Assembly: GCA_016183065.1 (NCBI GenBank)
Contig: JACPFF010000017.1
Location: 57,550 to 121,549, forward strand
Origin: Deltaproteobacteria bacterium
GTDB taxonomy: Bacteria; UBA10199; GCA-002796325; JACPFF01
DNA: 64,000 nt
Direction: 5' to 3'
Shown: positions 12,117 to 49,900 of the stretch, in pieces
Layout of the letters: the number at the start of each line of letters is the position of its first letter
Position numbering within the stretch: the stretch's first letter is position 1
Translations under genes and position numbers: made by a program
Notes under the pieces: generated by a model
The model's database searches: none
Seen by the model: the letters and a program-made list of their open reading frames with translations, nothing else
Told to the model about the DNA's origin: nothing

Positions 12117-12185
12117 ACCCGGCTTGACTCTCTCAGAGAGTTCTTTTATGGTGCGTCAACTTTTCCTGAGTACATGCAATCTACA

Positions 12186-12250
12186 GTACCATAAGTATTT
12201 CTAACGTTTAATGAGCACGTTTGTGCTCGTTAAACGTTGAAATACTATAG
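12186..12250. repeat. AT-rich 65-nt imperfect palindrome (long hairpin), copy 1 of 2
   Basis: AGTATTTCTAACGTTTAATGAGCAC-gttt-GTGCTCGTTAAACGTTGAAATACT. About 90% identical to the reverse complement of 32519-32583. Confidence 0.7.
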
Positions 12251-12909: not shown

Positions 12910-14067
12910 TTACACCTTCGCATGGGGGTCGAACAGGCGGCGGTGTTCGTCGAAGGCGAAGCGATCGGTCATGCCGGCGATGTAATCGCAGATGTGCCGT
13001 TCTTTTTGCTGATCGGCGACAATCCGTTCATAGAATTCTCTCGGGAGCATCCGGGCATTGTTCTGAAAGGCGTAAAAAAGGTCTTCGATGGTCCGCTTCG
13101 CTTTTTCGGCCATGCGCACCACGCGATAATGGCGATAGAGGTGCTCGAAGAGGAACTGTTTTAAGGCCGTCAGTTCTGCACTAAAGGGGGCACTGAACGC
13201 CGCAATTTGATCCCCACGCTCGCGGACATCGGCCACGGTCTGGATGGCATGTGCATTGAGACGCCGCTCTGTTTCCCGCAACATGTCCTCGATGCATTGT
13301 TTAATGAGCCGTCGCACGACCTGATGCCGGATGACCTTCGGGATTGCGGTCGGGAATTCCCGCCCCACGTCCTCGTAGCAGGTCTGCCAGAGTGACACGT
13401 GATCCAGGAGATCGTAGGTCAACATGCCCGACTGCAGCCCATCGTCGAGATCGTGATTGGTGTAGGCGATCTCGTCGGCAAGATTGACAATCTGTGATTC
13501 AAGGCTCGGATATCCCTGATAATCAAAATCAGGGATGCCCCGTGGTGCATCATATTCGCCGGCATGTTTGACGATCCCCTCAAGGACCTCAAAACTCAAG
13601 TTCAATCCTGTGTAATCGGGATATCGTTGCTCCAACAGGGTCACCACACGATAACTTTGATGGTTGTGCTCGAATCCATTGCAGTCGGCCATGAGTGCGT
13701 GCATGGCCTCTTCGCCGGCATGACCAAATGGTGTGTGCCCCAAATCATGGGAGAGCGCGATGGTTTCCGCGAGGTCTTCATTCAGTTGCAGTGAGCGACA
13801 AATGGCGCGCGAAATTTGTGCGACCTCGAGACTATGCGTGAGACGCGTGCGATAATAATCGCCCTCATGATTCACGAAGACCTGCGTCTTGTATTCCAGG
13901 CGTCGAAAGGCGCTCGAGTGGATGATGCGATCGCGATCACGCTGAAAGATCGTTCGATAGGGATCCTCGGGGGTGGCAATCTGTCGTCCGCGCGACTCGC
14001 AGGCCCGTGCGGCATAGGGGGCGAGGAGCGTGACCTCATGCCGCTCGAATTGTTCGCGGGTCAACAT
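12910..14067 (-). CDS. dgt: dGTP triphosphohydrolase-like HD-domain protein
   Basis: HD motifs HSLEVAQISR and SHDLGHTPFGHAGE. Typical dGTPase N-terminus. Confidence 0.8.
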   Translation of the reverse strand: MLTREQFERHEVTLLAPYAARACESRGRQIATPEDPYRTIFQRDRDRIIHSSAFRRLEYKTQVFVNHEGDYYRTRLTHSLEVAQISRAICRSLQLNEDLAETIALSHDLGHTPFGHAGEEAMHALMADCNGFEHNHQSYRVVTLLEQRYPDYTGLNLSFEVLEGIVKHAGEYDAPRGIPDFDYQGYPSLESQIVNLADEIAYTNHDLDDGLQSGMLTYDLLDHVSLWQTCYEDVGREFPTAIPKVIRHQVVRRLIKQCIEDMLRETERRLNAHAIQTVADVRERGDQIAAFSAPFSAELTALKQFLFEHLYRHYRVVRMAEKAKRTIEDLFYAFQNNARMLPREFYERIVADQQKERHICDYIAGMTDRFAFDEHRRLFDPHAKV

Positions 14068-14081
14068 CGTCTCTTCCCCGA

Positions 14082-14195
14082 CTATTGGAGGGGCTCACGT
14101 CGCCCCCTCCAGCGGCAAAGCCGCTGGAGCCTCCCCTTCAACGCCGCGATGCGGCTGGGTCGTGGGGCCCCACTCCCTTCCGATTGTCGCTATCG
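14082..14195. repeat. GC-rich multi-hairpin palindromic element, copy A (REP/RPE/MITE-like family)
   Basis: CTATTGGAGGGGCTCACGTCGCCCCCTCC / CTCCAGCGG-CAAAG-CCGCTGGAG / GTGGGGCCCCAC. Shares 5' end and hairpin architecture with copies at 19343 and 40954. Confidence 0.7.
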
Positions 14196-18896: not shown

Positions 18897-19265
18897 ATTT
18901 CCATTGGTCATTTTGCGGGGCCTTGCTATCTCCTCTGTCCCATGGACCGGTTTGCTGTTGATGACCGTCGATTCGCGCACTGTTTTGCGGCGCAGCCCTA
19001 TCGACAATCTCCCTCGGGATTTGCGGCCCTGCGCAGTGCGGCGATTCTGGCCTGGTACCGCACTCTCCTGAGATGTGGTGCGTCATCAGAACTGCGGCAA
19101 CTGGCGGAGCACGTGCGTTGTGCGGTTGCCAGGGGGACGCTGGCGTGGAACTGCGGCAATGGGGCGCGGGTGTTGCGGTTTTTTTCGCGTCACCGCTGGC
19201 TGCAACGTCGATGGGCCCTCGGCCTGCAACAGCGACAGGTTGGGACGCAGGAGGGAGAGCCGATC

Positions 19266-19835
19266 ATGACGGTCGGGCAGATGACTCCGACCGCCCGCAT
19301 CGATAAGCCGTGGGGTTGGGAGCTCATTGGTCCGATTGTGCGCCCTGCTATTGGAGGGGCTCACGTCGCCCCCCCAACGGGCAAAGCCCGTTGGGTCCCC
19401 CCCTCTCGCGCGCGGTGCGCGCTGGGGGACTTCCTCGTCCACCCGCTTCGCGGGTGCCCGGACTCGGTCGCCGCCACAGACATGGCGACCGATGCTGGAT
19501 ACACCTATAAAATGTTGCTCATTGTCGGGCCGCTTTCGCGTCAAGTCCACACGCCGTATCACGACGCGACCGGGACGGCACACGGCGCAAAGGTCGAGAC
19601 GCAGATGTGCCTCGGGCCCGATCCCTATCTGATCCGGACCGCGGATGCGCTCTATCGGATCTGGCCCGGCGAGGCCTTTCACATCCCGGAGGGGCTATGG
19701 CATCAACCGACGGTGCTCCCTGGCGCGGCATCGTTTGTCGAAGAGGTCTCGACCCCCAATATCGGCCCTGGCAGCACCACGCGAGACCCGGACGGCGACC
19801 CGTGGGCGACCCAGCGGAGTCCGGGTGATCAATAG
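19266..19835 (+). CDS. Cupin-domain protein (ManC-type small cupin, KPWGWELI motif) carrying an in-frame insertion of palindromic element copy B
   Basis: GGAGGGA RBS before ATG 19266. KPWGWELIG is followed directly by about 50 codons translated from the repeat element, then the cupin sequence resumes at GYTYKMLLIVGP ... FHIPEGLWHQ. Confidence 0.5.
   Translation: MTVGQMTPTARIDKPWGWELIGPIVRPAIGGAHVAPPTGKARWVPPSRARCALGDFLVHPLRGCPDSVAATDMATDAGYTYKMLLIVGPLSRQVHTPYHDATGTAHGAKVETQMCLGPDPYLIRTADALYRIWPGEAFHIPEGLWHQPTVLPGAASFVEEVSTPNIGPGSTTRDPDGDPWATQRSPGDQ
19343..19492. mobile_element. GC-rich multi-hairpin palindromic element, copy B, inserted in-frame (about 150 nt) within the cupin gene
   Basis: CTATTGGAGGGGCTCACGTCGCCCCCCC / CCCAACGGG-CAAAG-CCCGTTGGG / GCGCGC-ggt-GCGCGC / CACCCGC-ttc-GCGGGTG hairpins. 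Confidence 0.65.
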
Positions 19836-19959
19836 AGGGCTCTCCCGCATTAGATTCACGGACAACTTGAGAAGCTCAATCTATTCTATACGTTGTTTTA
19901 TATGCACTTAATTTACTAATTTTAATTGACATTTTCTATTTTTTATCTATTCTAAATGA

Positions 19960-21348
19960 ATGCCGAAGGCCAAAATTCTGGATCAACCCTTCCTTCTTGA
20001 AACACTGCTGAAATTCCTGTCGAGCCGGGGACCAACGAAGGCGAAGGACTTGTGTGCATGGCTCAAGATCAGCCAGCCCGCTTTCTCACGCCTTGTTGCA
20101 CGAGGGAAAGACGCGATTCTCCGTATGGGGCATGGCCCACATACGGAGTATGCGTGCAGGAGGATTGGGGGTTGGGGTGCATCGAGGATTCCCCTCTTTG
20201 CCATTGATGAGGAGGGGATTTTACGTCGTGTCGCCACCATACATCCCATTGCGCCTCAAGGCATTTACCTTGAGGCCGAAAGTGAAAACTTTCGTACCAA
20301 AACTTATCCCAATCTTCCGTACTTCCTTGAAGACTTGCGCCCATCAGGATTTTTGGGACGACTGGTGCCGCGACTCTATCCAGATCTCGGTTTTCCAGAC
20401 GATATTGCGCGGTGGACCGATGACGATTGCCTTGTCTATCTGACGCATTGTGGATGGAATCTCGTGGGAAATTATATTCTGGGGGAAAAAGCGTACGATG
20501 CGTATGTGAAAGCCGACATCACGCGATTGAATGTGGTCGAGGACCCTGATCGTGCAACGTGCTACCCGCAGATTGCCGCGCTGGTGTTGTCGCAAGGTCT
20601 TCCGGGGTCCTCTGCTGCAGGAGAACAACCAAAATTCCTTGCGATCCGGAAGACCCAAGACGGATGCGTGCCCGTGCTTGTGAAATTTTCACCCCCCATT
20701 CTCGATACCCTCAGCCAACGCGTTGCCGACCTGTTGATTTGCGAGCATATCGCGCATTCAGTCTTGAGAAGGCATGGCAAAACCGCTTCACAATCTTGCC
20801 TGATCAGGGGAGGGGAGCGTCTTTTTTTGGAGATCGAACGTTTTGACCGCGCTCGTCTTGGGGGGCGCCGGGGCGTCATCTCGCTCCACGCCCTGGACCT
20901 CGAGTTTGTTGGCCAACACCGCTCGTGGGCGGAGACGGCCGAGGCGTTATGGCATCAAAAAAAGATTGATTATGAGGCCTACGAGACGATCGTTTGGCTC
21001 GACGTCTTTGGGAAGTTGATCGGCAACTCGGATCGGCATCACGGCAACATCGCCTTTTTCTGCACCGGCGAAATCATCGGCGGCTTGGCGCCAACGTACG
21101 ACATGTTGCCCATGATGTATGCGCCGCAACACCACCAGTTGGTCGAGAAGTCTTTTGACCCCGCTCCCCCGAGATTTTTTGAACGCGCGGTCTGGGACGA
21201 CGCTGTCGCCGCTGCCAGGGACTATTGGATCCAAGTGCAGGCGCATGCAGAGCTCTCCGATCTGTTTCGCACAGTAGCGGCCAATCATGCGGCAACACTC
21301 ACAAAGACTCTGTCATTTTCCCTTGGCACTCCGCAAGGGAGCCGCTAG
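19960..21348 (+). CDS. HipA-like kinase with fused N-terminal HTH domain (YjjJ/HipH-like)
   Basis: N-terminal LKISQPAFSRLVA HTH resembling YjjJ. C-terminal LIGNSDRHHGNIAFF HipA catalytic motif. 120-nt AT-rich promoter region upstream. Confidence 0.7.
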   Translation: MPKAKILDQPFLLETLLKFLSSRGPTKAKDLCAWLKISQPAFSRLVARGKDAILRMGHGPHTEYACRRIGGWGASRIPLFAIDEEGILRRVATIHPIAPQGIYLEAESENFRTKTYPNLPYFLEDLRPSGFLGRLVPRLYPDLGFPDDIARWTDDDCLVYLTHCGWNLVGNYILGEKAYDAYVKADITRLNVVEDPDRATCYPQIAALVLSQGLPGSSAAGEQPKFLAIRKTQDGCVPVLVKFSPPILDTLSQRVADLLICEHIAHSVLRRHGKTASQSCLIRGGERLFLEIERFDRARLGGRRGVISLHALDLEFVGQHRSWAETAEALWHQKKIDYEAYETIVWLDVFGKLIGNSDRHHGNIAFFCTGEIIGGLAPTYDMLPMMYAPQHHQLVEKSFDPAPPRFFERAVWDDAVAAARDYWIQVQAHAELSDLFRTVAANHAATLTKTLSFSLGTPQGSR

Positions 21349-32518: not shown

Positions 32519-32583
32519 TATAGTATTTCAACGTTTCATGAGTACAAATGTGCTCATGAAACGTTAGAAATACTTATGGTACC
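32519..32583. repeat. AT-rich 65-nt imperfect palindrome, copy 2 (inverted orientation relative to copy 1), in the divergent promoter region of the DtxR-family regulator
   Basis: AGTATTTCAACGTTTCATGAGTAC-aaat-GTGCTCATGAAACGTTAGAAATACT, with flanks matching the reverse complement of 12186-12250. Confidence 0.7.
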
Positions 32584-32900
32584 GTAAGACGCATGTACTC
32601 AGGAAAAATTAACGCACCATAATATACGCCCGCATTGGTTGTCGCCTTCCTCATAAATAGTATCGGCATTTTTTGGAAAAAGTTGTCCAGTGAGGCCTCT
32701 GTCAGGCATTCTCAAGACCCGTTGAAATGTACCACGCCCTGCAAAAAAATCAGGTGAATTCCGACCCATTTTTTGCTGTTTCTGATTTGTAACTTATCGA
32801 AAATATTAAATGTTTCATTCCGTATCGTCTGGAGCCTTTCTTGCAGTACCTTAATCACGGACGCTGCAGTTCTTTTGATCGTCACGAAAGGGGTGTTGCC

Positions 32901-39252: not shown

Positions 39253-40902
39253 TTATTCCGCCAGACCGAAAATGCGCCGCCGCAGCAGGCTCAAGGGGAT
39301 CGATCCCGCGCGGAGGAAACGGTTATGGAAGTCCTTCTCGGAAAATTCCGCGCCATCGCGCCGCTGGAGATCCTCTTTAAGCCTCATGATGAGATGTTTG
39401 CCGATCAGGTAGCTCAGCTGGTAGCCGGGAGAGTAGGTGTAGCGGTTCACTTCAGCCTCTGCCCCTTCACGACTCAGGTGCGCATGCTCGATCAACATGG
39501 CCACACCCTGGTCATACGTCATGCTCCCCTGCGAGAGCTCGACGTCCACGATGATGCGTGTGGCGCGCCAGACCAGATCGCTGACCATGACAAACCGGCC
39601 TGCGGGTGTGTTGTGGAATCCGTGCGTCTTCATCAATTCTTCGCAATAGTGGGCCCATCCCTCGACGTACTCCGCCGGCTTCCCTCCCACAAATGGCGCA
39701 CTCCGGAGAAACGATACCTCCCGGTTCGCGGTGGCGAGTTGCAGGTGGTGACCGGGATAGGCCTCGTGGATCGCGGTATTGTAGATACTCGTGTGGTTGA
39801 GATGCTTGCGCAACAGGGCAGGATTGTTTGATGGCGTGACCACGTATGTGCTGGTCTGTATGCGATGGCATTTCGCCGGTGGAAAGATCGCGGCAAACGG
39901 GACAAACGTACGGAGAAACTTCGGGGTTTCGACAATATGTAATTGCTCCTCCGGAGGGACGTCCATCAGTTGGAGGGTCTGGATAAACCTTCGCGCTTCC
40001 TCGCATGCATGACGGGTCGTTGCCAGGGCATCGGCAAATGTCCGTGGGGCGTCAGCTTCGATCATGGCCTTTGCCGCGGCAATATCTGGCGTGCCAACGA
40101 GCTGGATGGCAAGACGGCGCTGCTCATCCTGGTAACGCGCGAGAGAGGTCTTCCCCAACTCCAATATGTCATTGACCGTCAGGTCCAGGGCGCGCAATCG
40201 GATCAGCTCGGCAAAATGTTCCGGCCCGAGGACCCACGACTCTTTTTCATCGACGGTAATTCCGGTCAGCCAGATGCCATATTCGGCGATCAGCGCCTTC
40301 ACCTGTATCACCGCCTTTTGCAGACGGGTCATCAACCTTGCTGAGATGTGGCCTTCTGCGGCGGCAGTGATGGCGTCAAAAAAGTGGGGCATGCTCTGCG
40401 CGGTCTGGATGGCCAGATCGCGCCATCGTCGTGGAGGTGTGGCCATACGGGAGCGGAATTGGTGCAGATACTGGGGGAAGGCCTCCAGGCGGCCTGCAAG
40501 ATTGGCAAAGCGTTCTTCGGCCTTGCCATGTTCATAGAGGAGCGTCAGGAAAATGATCTGACCGATCCCGCTGACAGCGTCGGGGTTGCGCTCCCACGTG
40601 CGCAGTTCGCGATAATAAAATGCCTGCTGGGCAAAATAATGTTCAAAGAGCGAGCGATCGAATTGTTGATCTTCCGTGAGCTGGTCTGCCGGGGTCTGGC
40701 GGAGTTCGGTCAGCCACCGGTGGAGGAATTGAAACTCCGCCTCGATCCCCTCGCGATCGGCGCGGGAGAGCCGGTGATCGAAGGCGTGGTAGCCGGAAAA
40801 CGTTGCAAATTCTGGAATTAATTCAAATAGTTGCTTGAGTTTTTTCCATTGGATCAGGTCGTGAGCGTCATGGTACGGAGGTTCAGGGGGGAGAATGGAC
40901 AT
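39253..40902 (-). CDS. DUF885-family protein
   Basis: HEAYPGHHLQ motif and overall length and organisation typical of DUF885. Confidence 0.6.
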   Translation of the reverse strand: MSILPPEPPYHDAHDLIQWKKLKQLFELIPEFATFSGYHAFDHRLSRADREGIEAEFQFLHRWLTELRQTPADQLTEDQQFDRSLFEHYFAQQAFYYRELRTWERNPDAVSGIGQIIFLTLLYEHGKAEERFANLAGRLEAFPQYLHQFRSRMATPPRRWRDLAIQTAQSMPHFFDAITAAAEGHISARLMTRLQKAVIQVKALIAEYGIWLTGITVDEKESWVLGPEHFAELIRLRALDLTVNDILELGKTSLARYQDEQRRLAIQLVGTPDIAAAKAMIEADAPRTFADALATTRHACEEARRFIQTLQLMDVPPEEQLHIVETPKFLRTFVPFAAIFPPAKCHRIQTSTYVVTPSNNPALLRKHLNHTSIYNTAIHEAYPGHHLQLATANREVSFLRSAPFVGGKPAEYVEGWAHYCEELMKTHGFHNTPAGRFVMVSDLVWRATRIIVDVELSQGSMTYDQGVAMLIEHAHLSREGAEAEVNRYTYSPGYQLSYLIGKHLIMRLKEDLQRRDGAEFSEKDFHNRFLRAGSIPLSLLRRRIFGLAE

Positions 40903-40953
40903 TCCGAAAATTATAGCAAAGAATGGGCAACTTGTAGAGCAATTTTGCCGATA

Positions 40954-41094
40954 CTATTACAGGGGCTCGCGTCGCCCCCTCCACCGGCAAAGCCGGTGGA
41001 GCCTCCCCCTCACGCTCGCCGTGCTCGCTGGATCGCTTCCCACGGGCGACGCGAGCTGCTGAGGACCACGCGTTTGCCCGTGGGAAGCTATGCA
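40954..41094. repeat. GC-rich multi-hairpin palindromic element, copy C, in divergent intergenic region
   Basis: CTATTACAGGGGCTCGCGTCGCCCCCTCC / CTCCACCGG-CAAAG-CCGGTGGAG / TTCCCACGGGC...GCCCGTGGGAA. Confidence 0.7.
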
Positions 41095-46964: not shown

Positions 46965-49900
46965 ATGAAAATGTCGATGGTGCAGCGTGCGGTGTTGGTG
47001 GGCGTTCTCGCAGGGATCGGTCTCGGCGTGAGTACATCGGTCAAGGCCGTAAGTTTTGGAGAACTCTTTCAGCAAGTCGCGGGTCAACTTACAAGCACGG
47101 CCGGTGATCTCCAGCCGGGCATTCCTGATGGGGCCGTGTTGCCCCAGGCCGAATTCCCACTGGAGAATTCCGGCGGGACGGTCATGCCGGAGAGTGGTGT
47201 GCCGTCCGGGCAAGACGTGAAGACCCCCACCATCGACGTGCCGTCTGAAGAGGACCCACACCCTGCCGACGCGTCGCAGCCAGGACGTGCCGGGGATGCG
47301 CGCAGAGAGACCGAGGAGACACCGATCGGCCTTGCCATCCCGTGGGTGCCGAAGTGGCTCCCACTACTGCAGCAAGAGATTCCATTGCCCGGCGGCACTC
47401 CCGCAAGAGACACGCTCTCTGTTGACACACCGAGACCGGTTGACACAACGAGGCCGACAGAGATTGTCGCGCCGATTGAAACACGGACACCAGCCGACAT
47501 CATAGTACCGATCGAGGTGCGAAACCCGGCGAGGATTGGCGCGCCGATTAAGGTGCAAACCCCGGCGAGGATTGAGACGCCGATCGAGGTGCGAAACCCG
47601 GCGAGGATTGAGACGCCGCCTGAGATGCGCTCTCCGACACAGTCGCCGGCACCAATCGAAACGCGAATTCCGACAGAGAGTATGGTGCCTATCGAAATGC
47701 GTGCCCCAGCGCAGCCAGAGGGACCGATTGAGACGCGAGGTCCGACGGAGGTTGCAGCGCCCATCGAGACAAGAACGCCAAGAGAGGCTGTTGTGCCGAT
47801 GCCTCCTCGCAAGATGTTGCCTCAAGATATCAGCCCCGATGCGTTTGTACCCCGGGAGCCTGTTGTGCGCGAGCCTCTCCCCGAGACTGCCGACGTCAAT
47901 GAGCCTGTGCCGATGCGGCAGACACTCCCCATTACGCCGGTGATTCCGCGACAGGCATCACGTATCGAATTGCCGAGGAGTCCCTCCAGCCGCCCGTTGC
48001 CGCCTCGAACCGGTTCAACGAGTTCCAAGAGAGATGGTGATGTGACAGCGGGTACCGATGAAGAGAATCCACAGCCAGGCTGCGAAGAGGATACGATTGC
48101 GTCGTGCAGCGTCATCTACGGATCGACCAGCTGTGCCGGGAAAAAAATATGCAAGAATGGAGGATGGAGCGTCTGCATTGCGCCACCACCGGTCGCGGAA
48201 GCCTGTGACGGTGTGGATAACGATTGTGATGGTGCGAGCGATGAGGGATTCAATGTCGGCGAGGTCTGCACCAACAGTGGAAATATGCAGTGCTACGCGC
48301 AGGGCATCCTCCAGTGTGCGCCGAATGGCGAGGTCACCTGCAATACCGCACCTGTGATGGATGGAACGCGATGCGAGGACGGGGATATCTGTACGACAGA
48401 CGACACGTGCCAAAACGGGGTCTGCCAGCCAGGGGTTATCAGCAGCAGTCCGTCGTGTGAAGAGAAGAAGGGTCCCCTCTGTGCTCCCGGAACAACGGTT
48501 GCGTGTAAAACAGGTTTGCCGGGTCTCTGCGCGGAAGGGTCACAGATGTGTCGTGAAGATGGTCTCGGATGGACAGCATGTGAGCCGAACAGCATGGGGA
48601 AGACCTTTTATATGGATGCCGATGGAGATACGTATGGCGATCCCATCAGCACGATTGTGGCCTGTGAGAAGCCCCAGGGATACGTCGAGGAGAATACGGA
48701 CTGTAATGACGGCAATCCGTTGATGCGTCCCGGCGCGAAAGAAGTGTGCGATACGATCGACAACAATTGCGTGGGTGGTGCGGATGAACCGTTCAAGAAT
48801 GCCGTCGGCCAATATGTCGGTCCGGACGCCATGGCGATCTGTTTCGCGGGTCCGGCCAAGTCCGCCTGTGAGGTCCAGGGAGACTATCAATGTGCGCCAG
48901 ATGGCCTCTCGACGATCTGTACCGCGAAGCCAAATCTTGCCGCCGCGAGCGTCGAGATCTGTGGCAATGCCTTTGACGAAGACTGCGACGGCATGGATGC
49001 TGCAAAGAACGCGTGCGGGGGGTGCAGTGAACTCGATCACGCGATCAGCGAACTGTGCGGTTGCAATGCGGCGGGCACGTATCAGTGCCAGAGTGATGGA
49101 ACGCTAGCGTGTATCGGCGGAGAGCCGCGGGAGGAAGTGTGCGACGGGAAAGACAACAACTGTAATGGGGCCATTGATGAGGGGATTGCGGTCATCATTG
49201 ATTATCATTCGCCAATGGAAACGGCCGGAATCGGTCCGTGTCAGGTGGGAAAGACGGAGTGCCTGAATGGCCAGCTGATCACCACGGCGCCTCTCCTCCC
49301 GACCGGCGAAGTCTGCGACACGATCGACAACAATTGCAATGGCGAAGTGGATGAAGGCCTCTTGCAGGCGTGTTATGATGGTCCGCAAGAAACCGTGGGT
49401 GTCGGTGCATGCCGTGCGGGAAAGCGGTTGTGCATTGCCGGAAACTTTGCCCAGGCCGGGTGTGATGCGCAGGTCCTCCCCGGTGAGGAGTTGTGCGACG
49501 ATCAGGTCGATAACGATTGTGATGGCGCCACCGATGAGGGATGCGGCGGGGAGAACACCGGGGATGAGACACGGCCCGAAGAGGAGACCGCGGAAGAAGC
49601 CGGGGAAGAACCCCACGGAGATGAAACCGAGACAGAAGCCTCACTGCATCACAAGGGGGCCACAGCGCCCGACGAGCGGGAACCCGCGCCAGCGCCCGTT
49701 CCTCAGCCGATGGCGCCGGCACAATGCGCGAGCGATATTTTTGACTGCAAGGGGCATGGACTCTATTTTGCGGAGGCTCGGGGATATTTGGGGAGTTTCC
49801 GGTCAGGCGATGATTCCGCACTCCTCTTTTTCACGCAGGACATCGCCGGGTCGCATGCCTATGCCGTTCCCGTCAAGGCCATGGTCGAAGGGACGGTCAC

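Follow-up and report, generated by a model that had tools for sequence, protein, structure and literature searches.

A hairpin-rich repeat lies in frame within a gene of predicted cupin fold and has relatives in several bacterial groups

Can a short palindromic repeat settle inside a protein-coding gene, in frame, and be carried along in its product? The question is raised by a 64,000-nt stretch of a metagenome-assembled genome (MAG) of a Deltaproteobacteria bacterium (GenBank assembly GCA_016183065.1, contig JACPFF010000017.1, positions 57,550 to 121,549 of the forward strand), which we call the window and whose own numbering is used throughout. A repeat search over the whole window found one three-copy family, at 14077-14153, 19343-19419 and 40949-41025 (copies A, B and C; Table 1). 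Copy B lies within a gene for a two-domain protein, the C-terminal domain of which has a predicted cupin fold. We are quite confident that a non-autonomous, hairpin-rich repeat has inserted in frame in this rare gene, and that the insert is most likely translated and tolerated. A first-pass annotation, made from the letters alone, had read the open reading frame (ORF) as KPWGWELIG, then PAIGGAHVAPP...DMATDA, then GYTYKMLLIVGP...FHIPEGLWHQ, with about 150 nt of palindromic element kept in frame without a stop. The sequence agrees: positions 19347-19496 form 50 stop-free codons, and the segments follow one another as ...RIDKPWGWELIGPIVRP-AIGGAHVAPPTGKARWVPPSRARCALGDFLVHPLRGCPDSVAATDMATDA-GYTYKMLLIVGPLSRQVH...FHIPEGLWHQP...

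The product of the gene is identical to a hypothetical protein in NCBI (P0001), annotated from a "Deltaproteobacteria bacterium" MAG, where it is encoded on a 171-kb contig. Relatives were sought, in about 15 billion proteins, with a word-indexed single-sequence search, its profile version and an exhaustive HMMER search of 1.84 billion representative proteins. In 5.8 billion clusters and in these representatives, full-length relatives numbered only about nine (34-51% identity), besides which there were two weak matches resembling phosphomannose isomerase (PMI); judged from these sequences, the host family would be a very small orphan family with about nine known members. A segment of 43 residues is absent from 10 of 10 relatives, while homology runs on at both flanks. 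Being missing from all of the relatives, the segment is lineage-specific. Orthologues carrying the same segment, or a noncoding 5' part, would have spoken against an insertion; the orthologues lack the segment and the 5' part is coding. The excess over the homologs comes to 43 codons rather than the full 50, because the element's first codons coincide with host sequence: its first 15 nt encode AIGGA, in line with the A-x-G-G-A consensus of the host loop, and the net gain is accordingly smaller than the repeat-like stretch.

This same resemblance is what could be said for reading the segment as an ordinary lineage-specific loop or linker whose likeness to the repeat is fortuitous. We find that hardly credible, and in effect refuted, since the full 84-nt core fits the family profile (built from 62 copies; nhmmer E = 5e-16, searching the window). 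The exact 18-nt core GGGGCTCRCGTCGCCCCC occurs three times in the 64-kb window, always on the + strand, against 0.35 occurrences expected by chance; the family hairpin and C-rich tract are present; and the insert has 73% GC versus 64% in the remainder of the gene.

Table 1. Positions of the host gene, of the parts of its insert and of the other copies of the repeat in the 64,000-nt window
Feature	Position	Strand	Description	Basis
Host gene	18942-19835	+	297 aa; N-terminal helical domain, then C-terminal domain of predicted cupin fold	listed ORF
First beta-strand region of the predicted cupin domain (TARIDKPWGWELIGPIVRP)	19290-19346	+	directly 5' of the insert	alignments; model strands 117-122 and 125-133
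Copy B, 84-nt core	19347-19430	+	sense orientation, inside the host gene; encodes AIGGAHVAPPTGKARWVPPSRARCALGD	
Segment missing from every relative (net insertion)	19362-19490	+	129 nt, 43 codons (HVAPP...DMAT)	gap in protein alignments
Mini-hairpin module CCACCCGCTTCGCGGGTGCCCGG	19439-19461	+	23 nt; nested or accessory module of the repeat family	
Terminal hairpin CGGTCGCC-N11-GGCGACCG	19465-19491	+		folding
Rest of the predicted cupin domain (GYTYKMLLIVGPLSRQVH...KVETQ...FHIPEGLWHQP...GPGSTTRDPDGDPW)	19497-19832	+		alignments; model strands 187-281
Copy A	14081-14154	+	intergenic; antisense to both flanking minus-strand genes	repeat, pattern and nhmmer searches
Copy C	40952-41035	+	intergenic; followed by a long hairpin module to about 41087	repeat, pattern and nhmmer searches

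The core of copy B, aligned with 61 other copies, spans 28 codons and begins at a codon boundary. It comprises a CTATT box, the hairpin GGGGCTCACGTCGCCCC (GGGGC-N7-GCCCC), a perfect 10-bp hairpin (CCCAACGGGC-AAA-GCCCGTTGGG), a C-rich tract and a third short hairpin (GCGCGC-GGT-GCGCGC). Over 77 nt, copies A and B share 75% of their positions, and identity of copy B to copies A and C is 75-79%; its region folds better than shuffled sequence (z = -3.8), and no target-site duplication is visible at it. The mini-hairpin further 3' has exact matches of 16-20 nt at two loci of the family search described below (L085 and L042) and a near match at a third (L004). For the terminal hairpin, nothing similar turned up in 97 loci or in the rest of the window, and it could be another module or a rearranged host loop. 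That the stretch is entirely the repeat element, as had been claimed, can therefore be shown for the core and the 23-nt module but not for its last hairpin, and the DNA of the insert that can be traced to the repeat by sequence would be confined to these two parts.

The gene begins further upstream than had been supposed. Position 19266, taken as the start in the first-pass annotation, is an internal Met; the true start is at 18942, because the homology of the relatives covers 108 residues upstream of 19266 (W69 and F80, for example, are invariant in the seven-member alignment), and the protein thereby includes an extra N-terminal helical domain. The nature of the C-terminal domain is less easily read from sequence. 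The host ORF, with or without the insert, has no Pfam or NCBIfam match at E <= 1, and a PDB sequence-profile search with the host protein gave nothing at E <= 10, so the cupin assignment comes from predicted structure. The sole sequence link to cupins is a weak profile match (E = 1e-4) to a 144-aa protein bearing PF01050 (P0008), which has KPWGxE, LSLQxH, KVET and a later His in common with the host protein. AlphaFold2 models of the window protein (predicted TM-score, pTM, 0.73) and of an insert-free homolog, P0002 (mean confidence, pLDDT, 84; pTM 0.84), both begin with a helical domain of about 95 residues, after which comes a beta-rich one. When the two models were compared with the PDB by Foldseek, the best 50 listed matches were almost all cupin-fold proteins, among them germin, archaeal PMI and phosphoglucose isomerase, TM1459, DddK and the CENP-C cupin (E-values of 4e-6 to 1e-4, TM-score to target up to 0.76). 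Structure prediction and fold search thus point to a cupin fold, and the first-pass reading of KPWGWELIG as a hallmark cupin motif arrived at the fold that these predict, although the motif by itself could not demonstrate it.

Conservation within the family is strong on both sides of the insert. Residues K122, P123, W124, G125 and E127 are invariant in 11 of 11 sequences, and D121 and W126 also in the seven closest; further on, S199, H203, K217, E219 and H247 are invariant in the 11-sequence alignment, and Q201 and H254 nearly so. This set presumably fits the PMI-type QxH...E...H pattern, with putative roles for its residues as metal ligands. Among known proteins, the nearest in kind are the type II PMI-like small cupins (PF01050; Thermococcus PMI structures 7zvm and 7zvy): the C-terminal domain is predicted to form the same barrel (TM-score to target about 0.7), and the host protein has the KPWGxE...LSxQxH...KVET...H pattern seen through P0008. 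Unlike these, it has in addition a helical domain of about 100 residues at its N terminus, and its family conserves the C-terminal motif GPGSTTRDPxGDPW.

Where in this fold does the insert lie? In the P0002 model, a two-residue turn joins strands 125-137 and 140-151 into a hairpin, and the extra residues of the window protein map onto this turn. The window model retains the flanking strands (125-133 and 187-194), and its residues 135-184 have pLDDT < 50. The insert is therefore predicted to be a disordered loop outside the barrel, at the tip of the beta-hairpin that the first two long cupin strands form. Loop length at this place differs among the relatives themselves, P0005 being three and P0006 eight residues shorter. 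Alignments and model thus agree with what had been proposed from the letters, a palindromic repeat placed in frame in a protein gene between two beta-strands.

The repeat is not peculiar to the window. When species-representative genomes were scanned with a core pattern of 33 nt, 27 of its bases fixed, at least 93 loci matched, and the labels of those listed are Nitrospirota, Syntrophorhabdus, Syntrophus/Syntrophobacterales, Myxococcota, Bdellovibrionales and many unclassified "Deltaproteobacteria" MAGs; the cultured strain Syntrophorhabdus aromaticivorans UI carries copies, as do the complete genomes CP064976.1 and OY762209.1. The unit is about 84 nt long, with TCTATTAnA-GGGG as the 5' end of its consensus. 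This consensus has two hairpins, and the central stem, that of copy B included, exhibits compensatory changes: both sides have changed at pairs 31/52, 32/51, 33/50 and 36/47 in 3, 1, 9 and 15 sequences, respectively. The family search and those that follow refer to the matches listed.

We then have 72 near-full copies, and requiring an ORF of at least 50 codons on both sides leaves 10 that are in frame within genes. This confirms, from unrelated genes, the in-frame behavior that had been suspected from copy B. All ten use one and the same antisense frame, encoding approximately SEQSEREGEAPxALPxEGATRAPxID. In eight of these genes, Pfam domains flank or span the insert (Mfd, methionyl-tRNA synthetase [MetRS], a molybdopterin oxidoreductase, a zinc alcohol dehydrogenase [ADH], a GltD-like oxidoreductase, Lhr, MqnA and LigT), and the others are long ORFs. 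Comparison with solved structures shows clean insertions in two cases: the match to E. coli Mfd continues without loss at residue 680 on either side of 24 extra residues, and that to ADH does so at residues 163-166 around 37. Three of the loci (L061, L084 and L090) are contigs of JACPFG01, a groundwater Deltaproteobacteria MAG with 58% GC like the window; the element of L090 is of the same C-rich subvariant as copy B, and JACPFG01 has in-frame antisense copies in MqnA and the molybdopterin oxidoreductase. This MAG may come from the organism of the window or from a close relative. A peptide-profile search for element-encoded peptides found 29 ORFs, all shorter than 100 aa and one of them a Pfam-annotated fragment; it missed long host proteins that were already known, and is uninformative on prevalence. 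The element generates many spurious short ORFs.

The antisense preference of the in-frame copies has a rough binomial P of ~5e-7, or ~3e-4 after allowing for a general antisense bias. It runs against the openness of the frames, since two sense frames are free of stops in 56/72 and 48/72 of the near-full copies versus 41/72 for the antisense frame in use. The encoded peptides differ as well, the antisense family peptide being acidic and hydrophilic (pI 4.3) versus a pI of 9.0 for the window insert. Candidate causes of the bias are tolerance of the acidic hydrophilic peptide, a cost of the sense orientation at the RNA level, and strand-specific insertion.

How, then, did the gene in the window come to its present form, and does it still work? 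A repeat made of an 84-nt, 28-codon core and optional hairpin modules would have inserted in a gene for helical and PMI-like cupin domains, adding 43-49 codons at the tip of a beta-hairpin while keeping the frame and introducing no stop. The insert would most likely be translated as a disordered surface loop, with the gene remaining functional; copies that are in frame, stop-free and encode a benign peptide would be what purifying selection has left, and not the outcome of targeted insertion. We infer, rather than demonstrate, translation and tolerance of the insert from its position at a hairpin turn, from the variable length of this loop among relatives and from the fact that the window protein keeps 60 of the 60 residues invariant in the seven-member family alignment.

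Several observations weigh against this reading. The allele is found in one genome only, and neither a close orthologue nor an empty site turned up (a scan of metagenome contigs for relatives of the host gene gave 311 pattern matches, 0 of them confirmed), so the boundaries of the insertion are approximate; the last ~30 nt of the insert have no demonstrable repeat origin; copy B is the only validated sense-orientation intragenic case among the 72 near-full copies, and sense-orientation copies could usually be harmful. Moreover, a recently inactivated gene would look identical. The insertion may thus have inactivated the gene, the intact frame being coincidental and the locus a young pseudogene. 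Stops are few in a GC-rich element: the frame in which copy B is read is the sense frame open in 56 of 72 copies, and an in-frame, stop-free outcome would arise by chance about a quarter of the time; the host family has few and scattered members, as a dispensable gene would; and sense copies are otherwise absent from validated genes. We nevertheless consider inactivation quite unlikely: the ORF is intact over 297 codons, all family-invariant residues 3' of the insert are retained, the insert is at a length-variable hairpin tip and not within a strand, and equivalent insertions in normally essential genes such as MetRS show that the family is tolerated in proteins. Where the first-pass annotation had left the choice between a tolerant and an inactivated gene, the intact ORF and the invariant residues most likely favor tolerance.

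The source of the sequence raises a further doubt. In a short-read MAG, with a multicopy repeat present three times in 64 kb, misassembly at the repeat is conceivable, and the insertion could be a chimeric artefact. This is unlikely, since the two flanks are the halves of one conserved gene, in the right order and in one frame, an arrangement that no chimeric join would restore. The sequence of copy B is, moreover, distinct from those of copies A and C to the extent given above, and we regard an artefact of assembly as very improbable.

The intergenic copies, too, are oriented. Among the matches listed, and by a crude ORF-based gene call, the element is antisense to the neighboring gene on its 5' side in 57 cases and co-oriented with it in 18; for the neighbor on its 3' side the counts are 45 and 23, respectively. 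Many intergenic copies end 11-26 nt from a start codon. In the window, copies A and C follow the antisense rule and copy B does not: copy A begins 14 nt beyond the start codon of ORF 12910-14067, and copy C is antisense to ORF 39253-40902, the start codon of which is 50 nt off. This bias and the closeness of many copies to a start codon, together with the compensatory stem changes and the exact matching of the 33-nt core across several phylum-level labels, would be expected if the element were not purely selfish but a functional RNA or DNA signal, such as an mRNA-stabilizing or processing hairpin or a protein-binding site, with copy B acting as a regulatory structure within its transcript. We give this explanation a small but real chance. 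Rfam yielded no family match, either over the whole window at gathering thresholds or for 19300-19520 at permissive ones; the two runs returned only noise and one tRNA elsewhere. Arrays of variable period, and copies inside and beside unrelated genes, are what mobile repeats, rather than a dedicated regulator, typically show, and copy B is in the minority orientation. A sigma-70 promoter, suggested by the TATAAT-like end and TTGCCG, was rejected given their spacing of ~23 nt.

The arrays are head-to-tail and occur in some genomes, with periods of 84, 86, 105, 146, 163, 209 and 223 nt. Tandem arrays of two to four units are seen at L007 2057-2316 (84 nt), L029 371-904 (163), L038 296-471 (84), L056 6782-7272 (223) and L026 4500-4677 (86), and some yield long spurious ORFs that repeat GAHVAPSTGKA. 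A CRISPR array was rejected, as the periods vary (84-223 nt) and whole units with their flanks are repeated. Many copies (L016 1326-1405, L025, L032, L049, L060 and others) contain a nested mini-hairpin of 22-23 nt, CCACCCGCAAGCGGGTACCCGG, at varied positions, sometimes in place of the 3' arm of the main hairpin; this suggests a second, smaller mobile module or modular recombination. One copy (L094 1107-1179) is on a 24-kb contig classified as viral in IMG/VR (IMGVR_UViG_2721755143_000001), which could be a prophage region or a hint of a vehicle of horizontal spread.

As for what moves the element, no recurrent transposase-like ORF family was found near the copies when 2467 ORFs from the 93 listed loci, 8 kb each, were clustered, and the genes between inverted copies contained nothing recurrent beyond common families. 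No terminal inverted repeats join the element ends, the internal hairpins being separate, and no direct repeats could be discerned at the edges of 14 inspected copies, whose boundaries are approximate. A full-text search of open-access papers did not find the core sequence, and topic searches of the literature gave only general papers on repetitive extragenic palindromic (REP) sequences, transposable elements of the miniature inverted-repeat type (MITEs) and Rickettsia palindromic elements (RPEs).

The surroundings of the host gene differ from those of its relatives. Two insert-free homologs (L096 4968-6765 and L095 2151-4307) lie directly downstream of genes for a GalT-like uridylyltransferase and a major facilitator superfamily (MFS) transporter, respectively, with a glycosyltransferase and an MFS transporter near the former; these neighbors hint at a role of the orphan cupin family in sugar metabolism. 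The window gene is instead preceded by an IscA-like gene and a superoxide dismutase gene. Downstream, between its stop and a 462-aa ORF (19960-21348) that resembles a HipA-type kinase, there are 100 strongly AT-rich nucleotides (19860-19960) in a background of 58% GC, which may be a promoter or the edge of an island. The window also contains a second, unrelated AT-rich repeat of ~105 nt, at 12146-12249 (+) and 32519-32622 (-), with two inverted copies that are 88% alike, 20 kb apart and both apparently intergenic, and with the internal palindromes TATGGT...ACCATA and AACGTTTAATGAGCAC-GTTT-GTGCTCGTTAAACGTT. Finally, two sets of coding tandem repeats occur at 47508-47772 and 48213-49542, one with a 36-nt period (12 residues, at least five units) and one of Cys/Asp-rich units of the form C-D-x-x-D-N-N-C-x-G-x-x-D-E; both sets probably belong to a large secreted or surface protein.

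Taken by itself, the locus is an ordinary example of a known phenomenon, and what it adds lies in the family. The element is widespread across phylum-level labels, apparently unnamed, and repeatedly found in coding sequence in one orientation and frame. We propose, tentatively and with slightly less than even confidence, that these copies represent an undescribed family of protein-invading palindromic elements across Desulfobacterota-type Deltaproteobacteria, Nitrospirota, Myxococcota and Bdellovibrionales, with about one in seven of the near-full copies listed in frame, normally essential genes included, and almost all of these in one orientation and frame that encodes a conserved acidic peptide. 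If this is true, RPE-like remodeling of proteins is a general phenomenon rather than a rickettsial oddity, and the bias would suggest either that the encoded peptide or RNA is under selection or that insertion is strand-specific. Rickettsia is the best-known case of selfish repeats colonizing proteins in frame, with scattered reports from other bacteria; here one 84-nt element does so in numerous anaerobes and groundwater bacteria, free-living and for the most part uncultured, in proteins such as Mfd and MetRS. The copies offer a natural data set on tolerated peptide insertions, on the seeding of new loops and linkers and on mobilization without a nearby transposase, and translation of an insert is directly testable in the cultured S. 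aromaticivorans UI. For annotation, the element matters because it creates spurious short ORFs and inflates alignment gaps in real proteins.

Which known repeats does the family resemble? The mycobacterial interspersed repetitive units (MIRU), reportedly described by Supply and colleagues in 1997, are said to be units of 40-100 nt between co-directional genes, with a constant orientation to transcription, an open frame and tandem arrays. The present units are likewise intergenic, oriented, open in frame, near a multiple of three in length and found in tandem arrays. They differ in being hairpin-rich and in invading coding regions, and no start/stop overlaps suggestive of translational coupling were seen. 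Unlike MITEs, the element lacks end-spanning terminal inverted repeats, and no target-site duplications could be discerned at the 14 copies inspected.

The REP superfamilies tagged by CGTC or GTAG (PMC3733652) are closer. These REPs are often transcribed with neighboring genes, and Di Nocera et al. (2013) described intragenic REPs of Opitutus, Thauera, Xanthomonas and others that encode 20-80 residues, often in repair genes. Like them, the present family consists of small GC-rich stem-loops with intragenic copies, here with Mfd and Lhr as the repair-gene cases. CGTC-tagged REPs have a terminal CGTC, then a stem of 8-9 bp that starts with A/T pairs, a loop of 4-5 nt and a 3-nt tail, and form mostly head-to-head dimers. 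In our element, CGTC stands 5' of the main hairpin in all copies, but this is forced, being part of the search pattern; it precedes a covarying, GC-rich stem of 9-10 bp by ~6 nt, and the loop is AAA (or CAAAG). The unit, 84 nt long, has three hairpins plus a conserved TCTATTA box, versus a single stem-loop of 20-40 nt, and its arrays are head-to-tail rather than head-to-head dimers. According to the same text, the RPEs and one REP superfamily have in common a CGTC tag and the lack of a dedicated transposase, and none was found adjoining the present copies. It is also unlike the GTAG REPs mobilized by REP-associated tyrosine transposases (RAYTs): the consensus lacks GTAG, which is seen in few copies, and no RAYT-type (IS200/IS605-type Y1) gene recurs within the 8 kb taken per locus.

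The closest parallel in behavior is with RPEs. These palindromic repeats (Ogata et al. 2000, 2002, as summarized in PMC10969869 and PMC3733652) are both intergenic and in frame in unrelated, often housekeeping genes. That such insertions are rare outside Rickettsia, as the first-pass annotation held, is an overstatement, as both sources give intragenic REP or MITE copies in several non-rickettsial species, and the former, a 2024 review, considers in-frame fusions of MITEs not unusual, with RPEs as the extreme case. The present family is similarly short, palindromic and interspersed, intergenic as well as in frame in unrelated genes, and it encodes a conserved peptide; in the window, the insertion site is also compatible with the fold by prediction, being a hairpin tip with an insert of pLDDT < 50 between confident flanking strands. 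It differs in its one strongly preferred orientation and frame, in its head-to-tail arrays and in its hosts, which are "Deltaproteobacteria", Nitrospirota, Myxococcota and Bdellovibrionales rather than one genus, the distinction being drawn by host and not by sequence. The element is thus RPE-like in behavior, and not an RPE by host.

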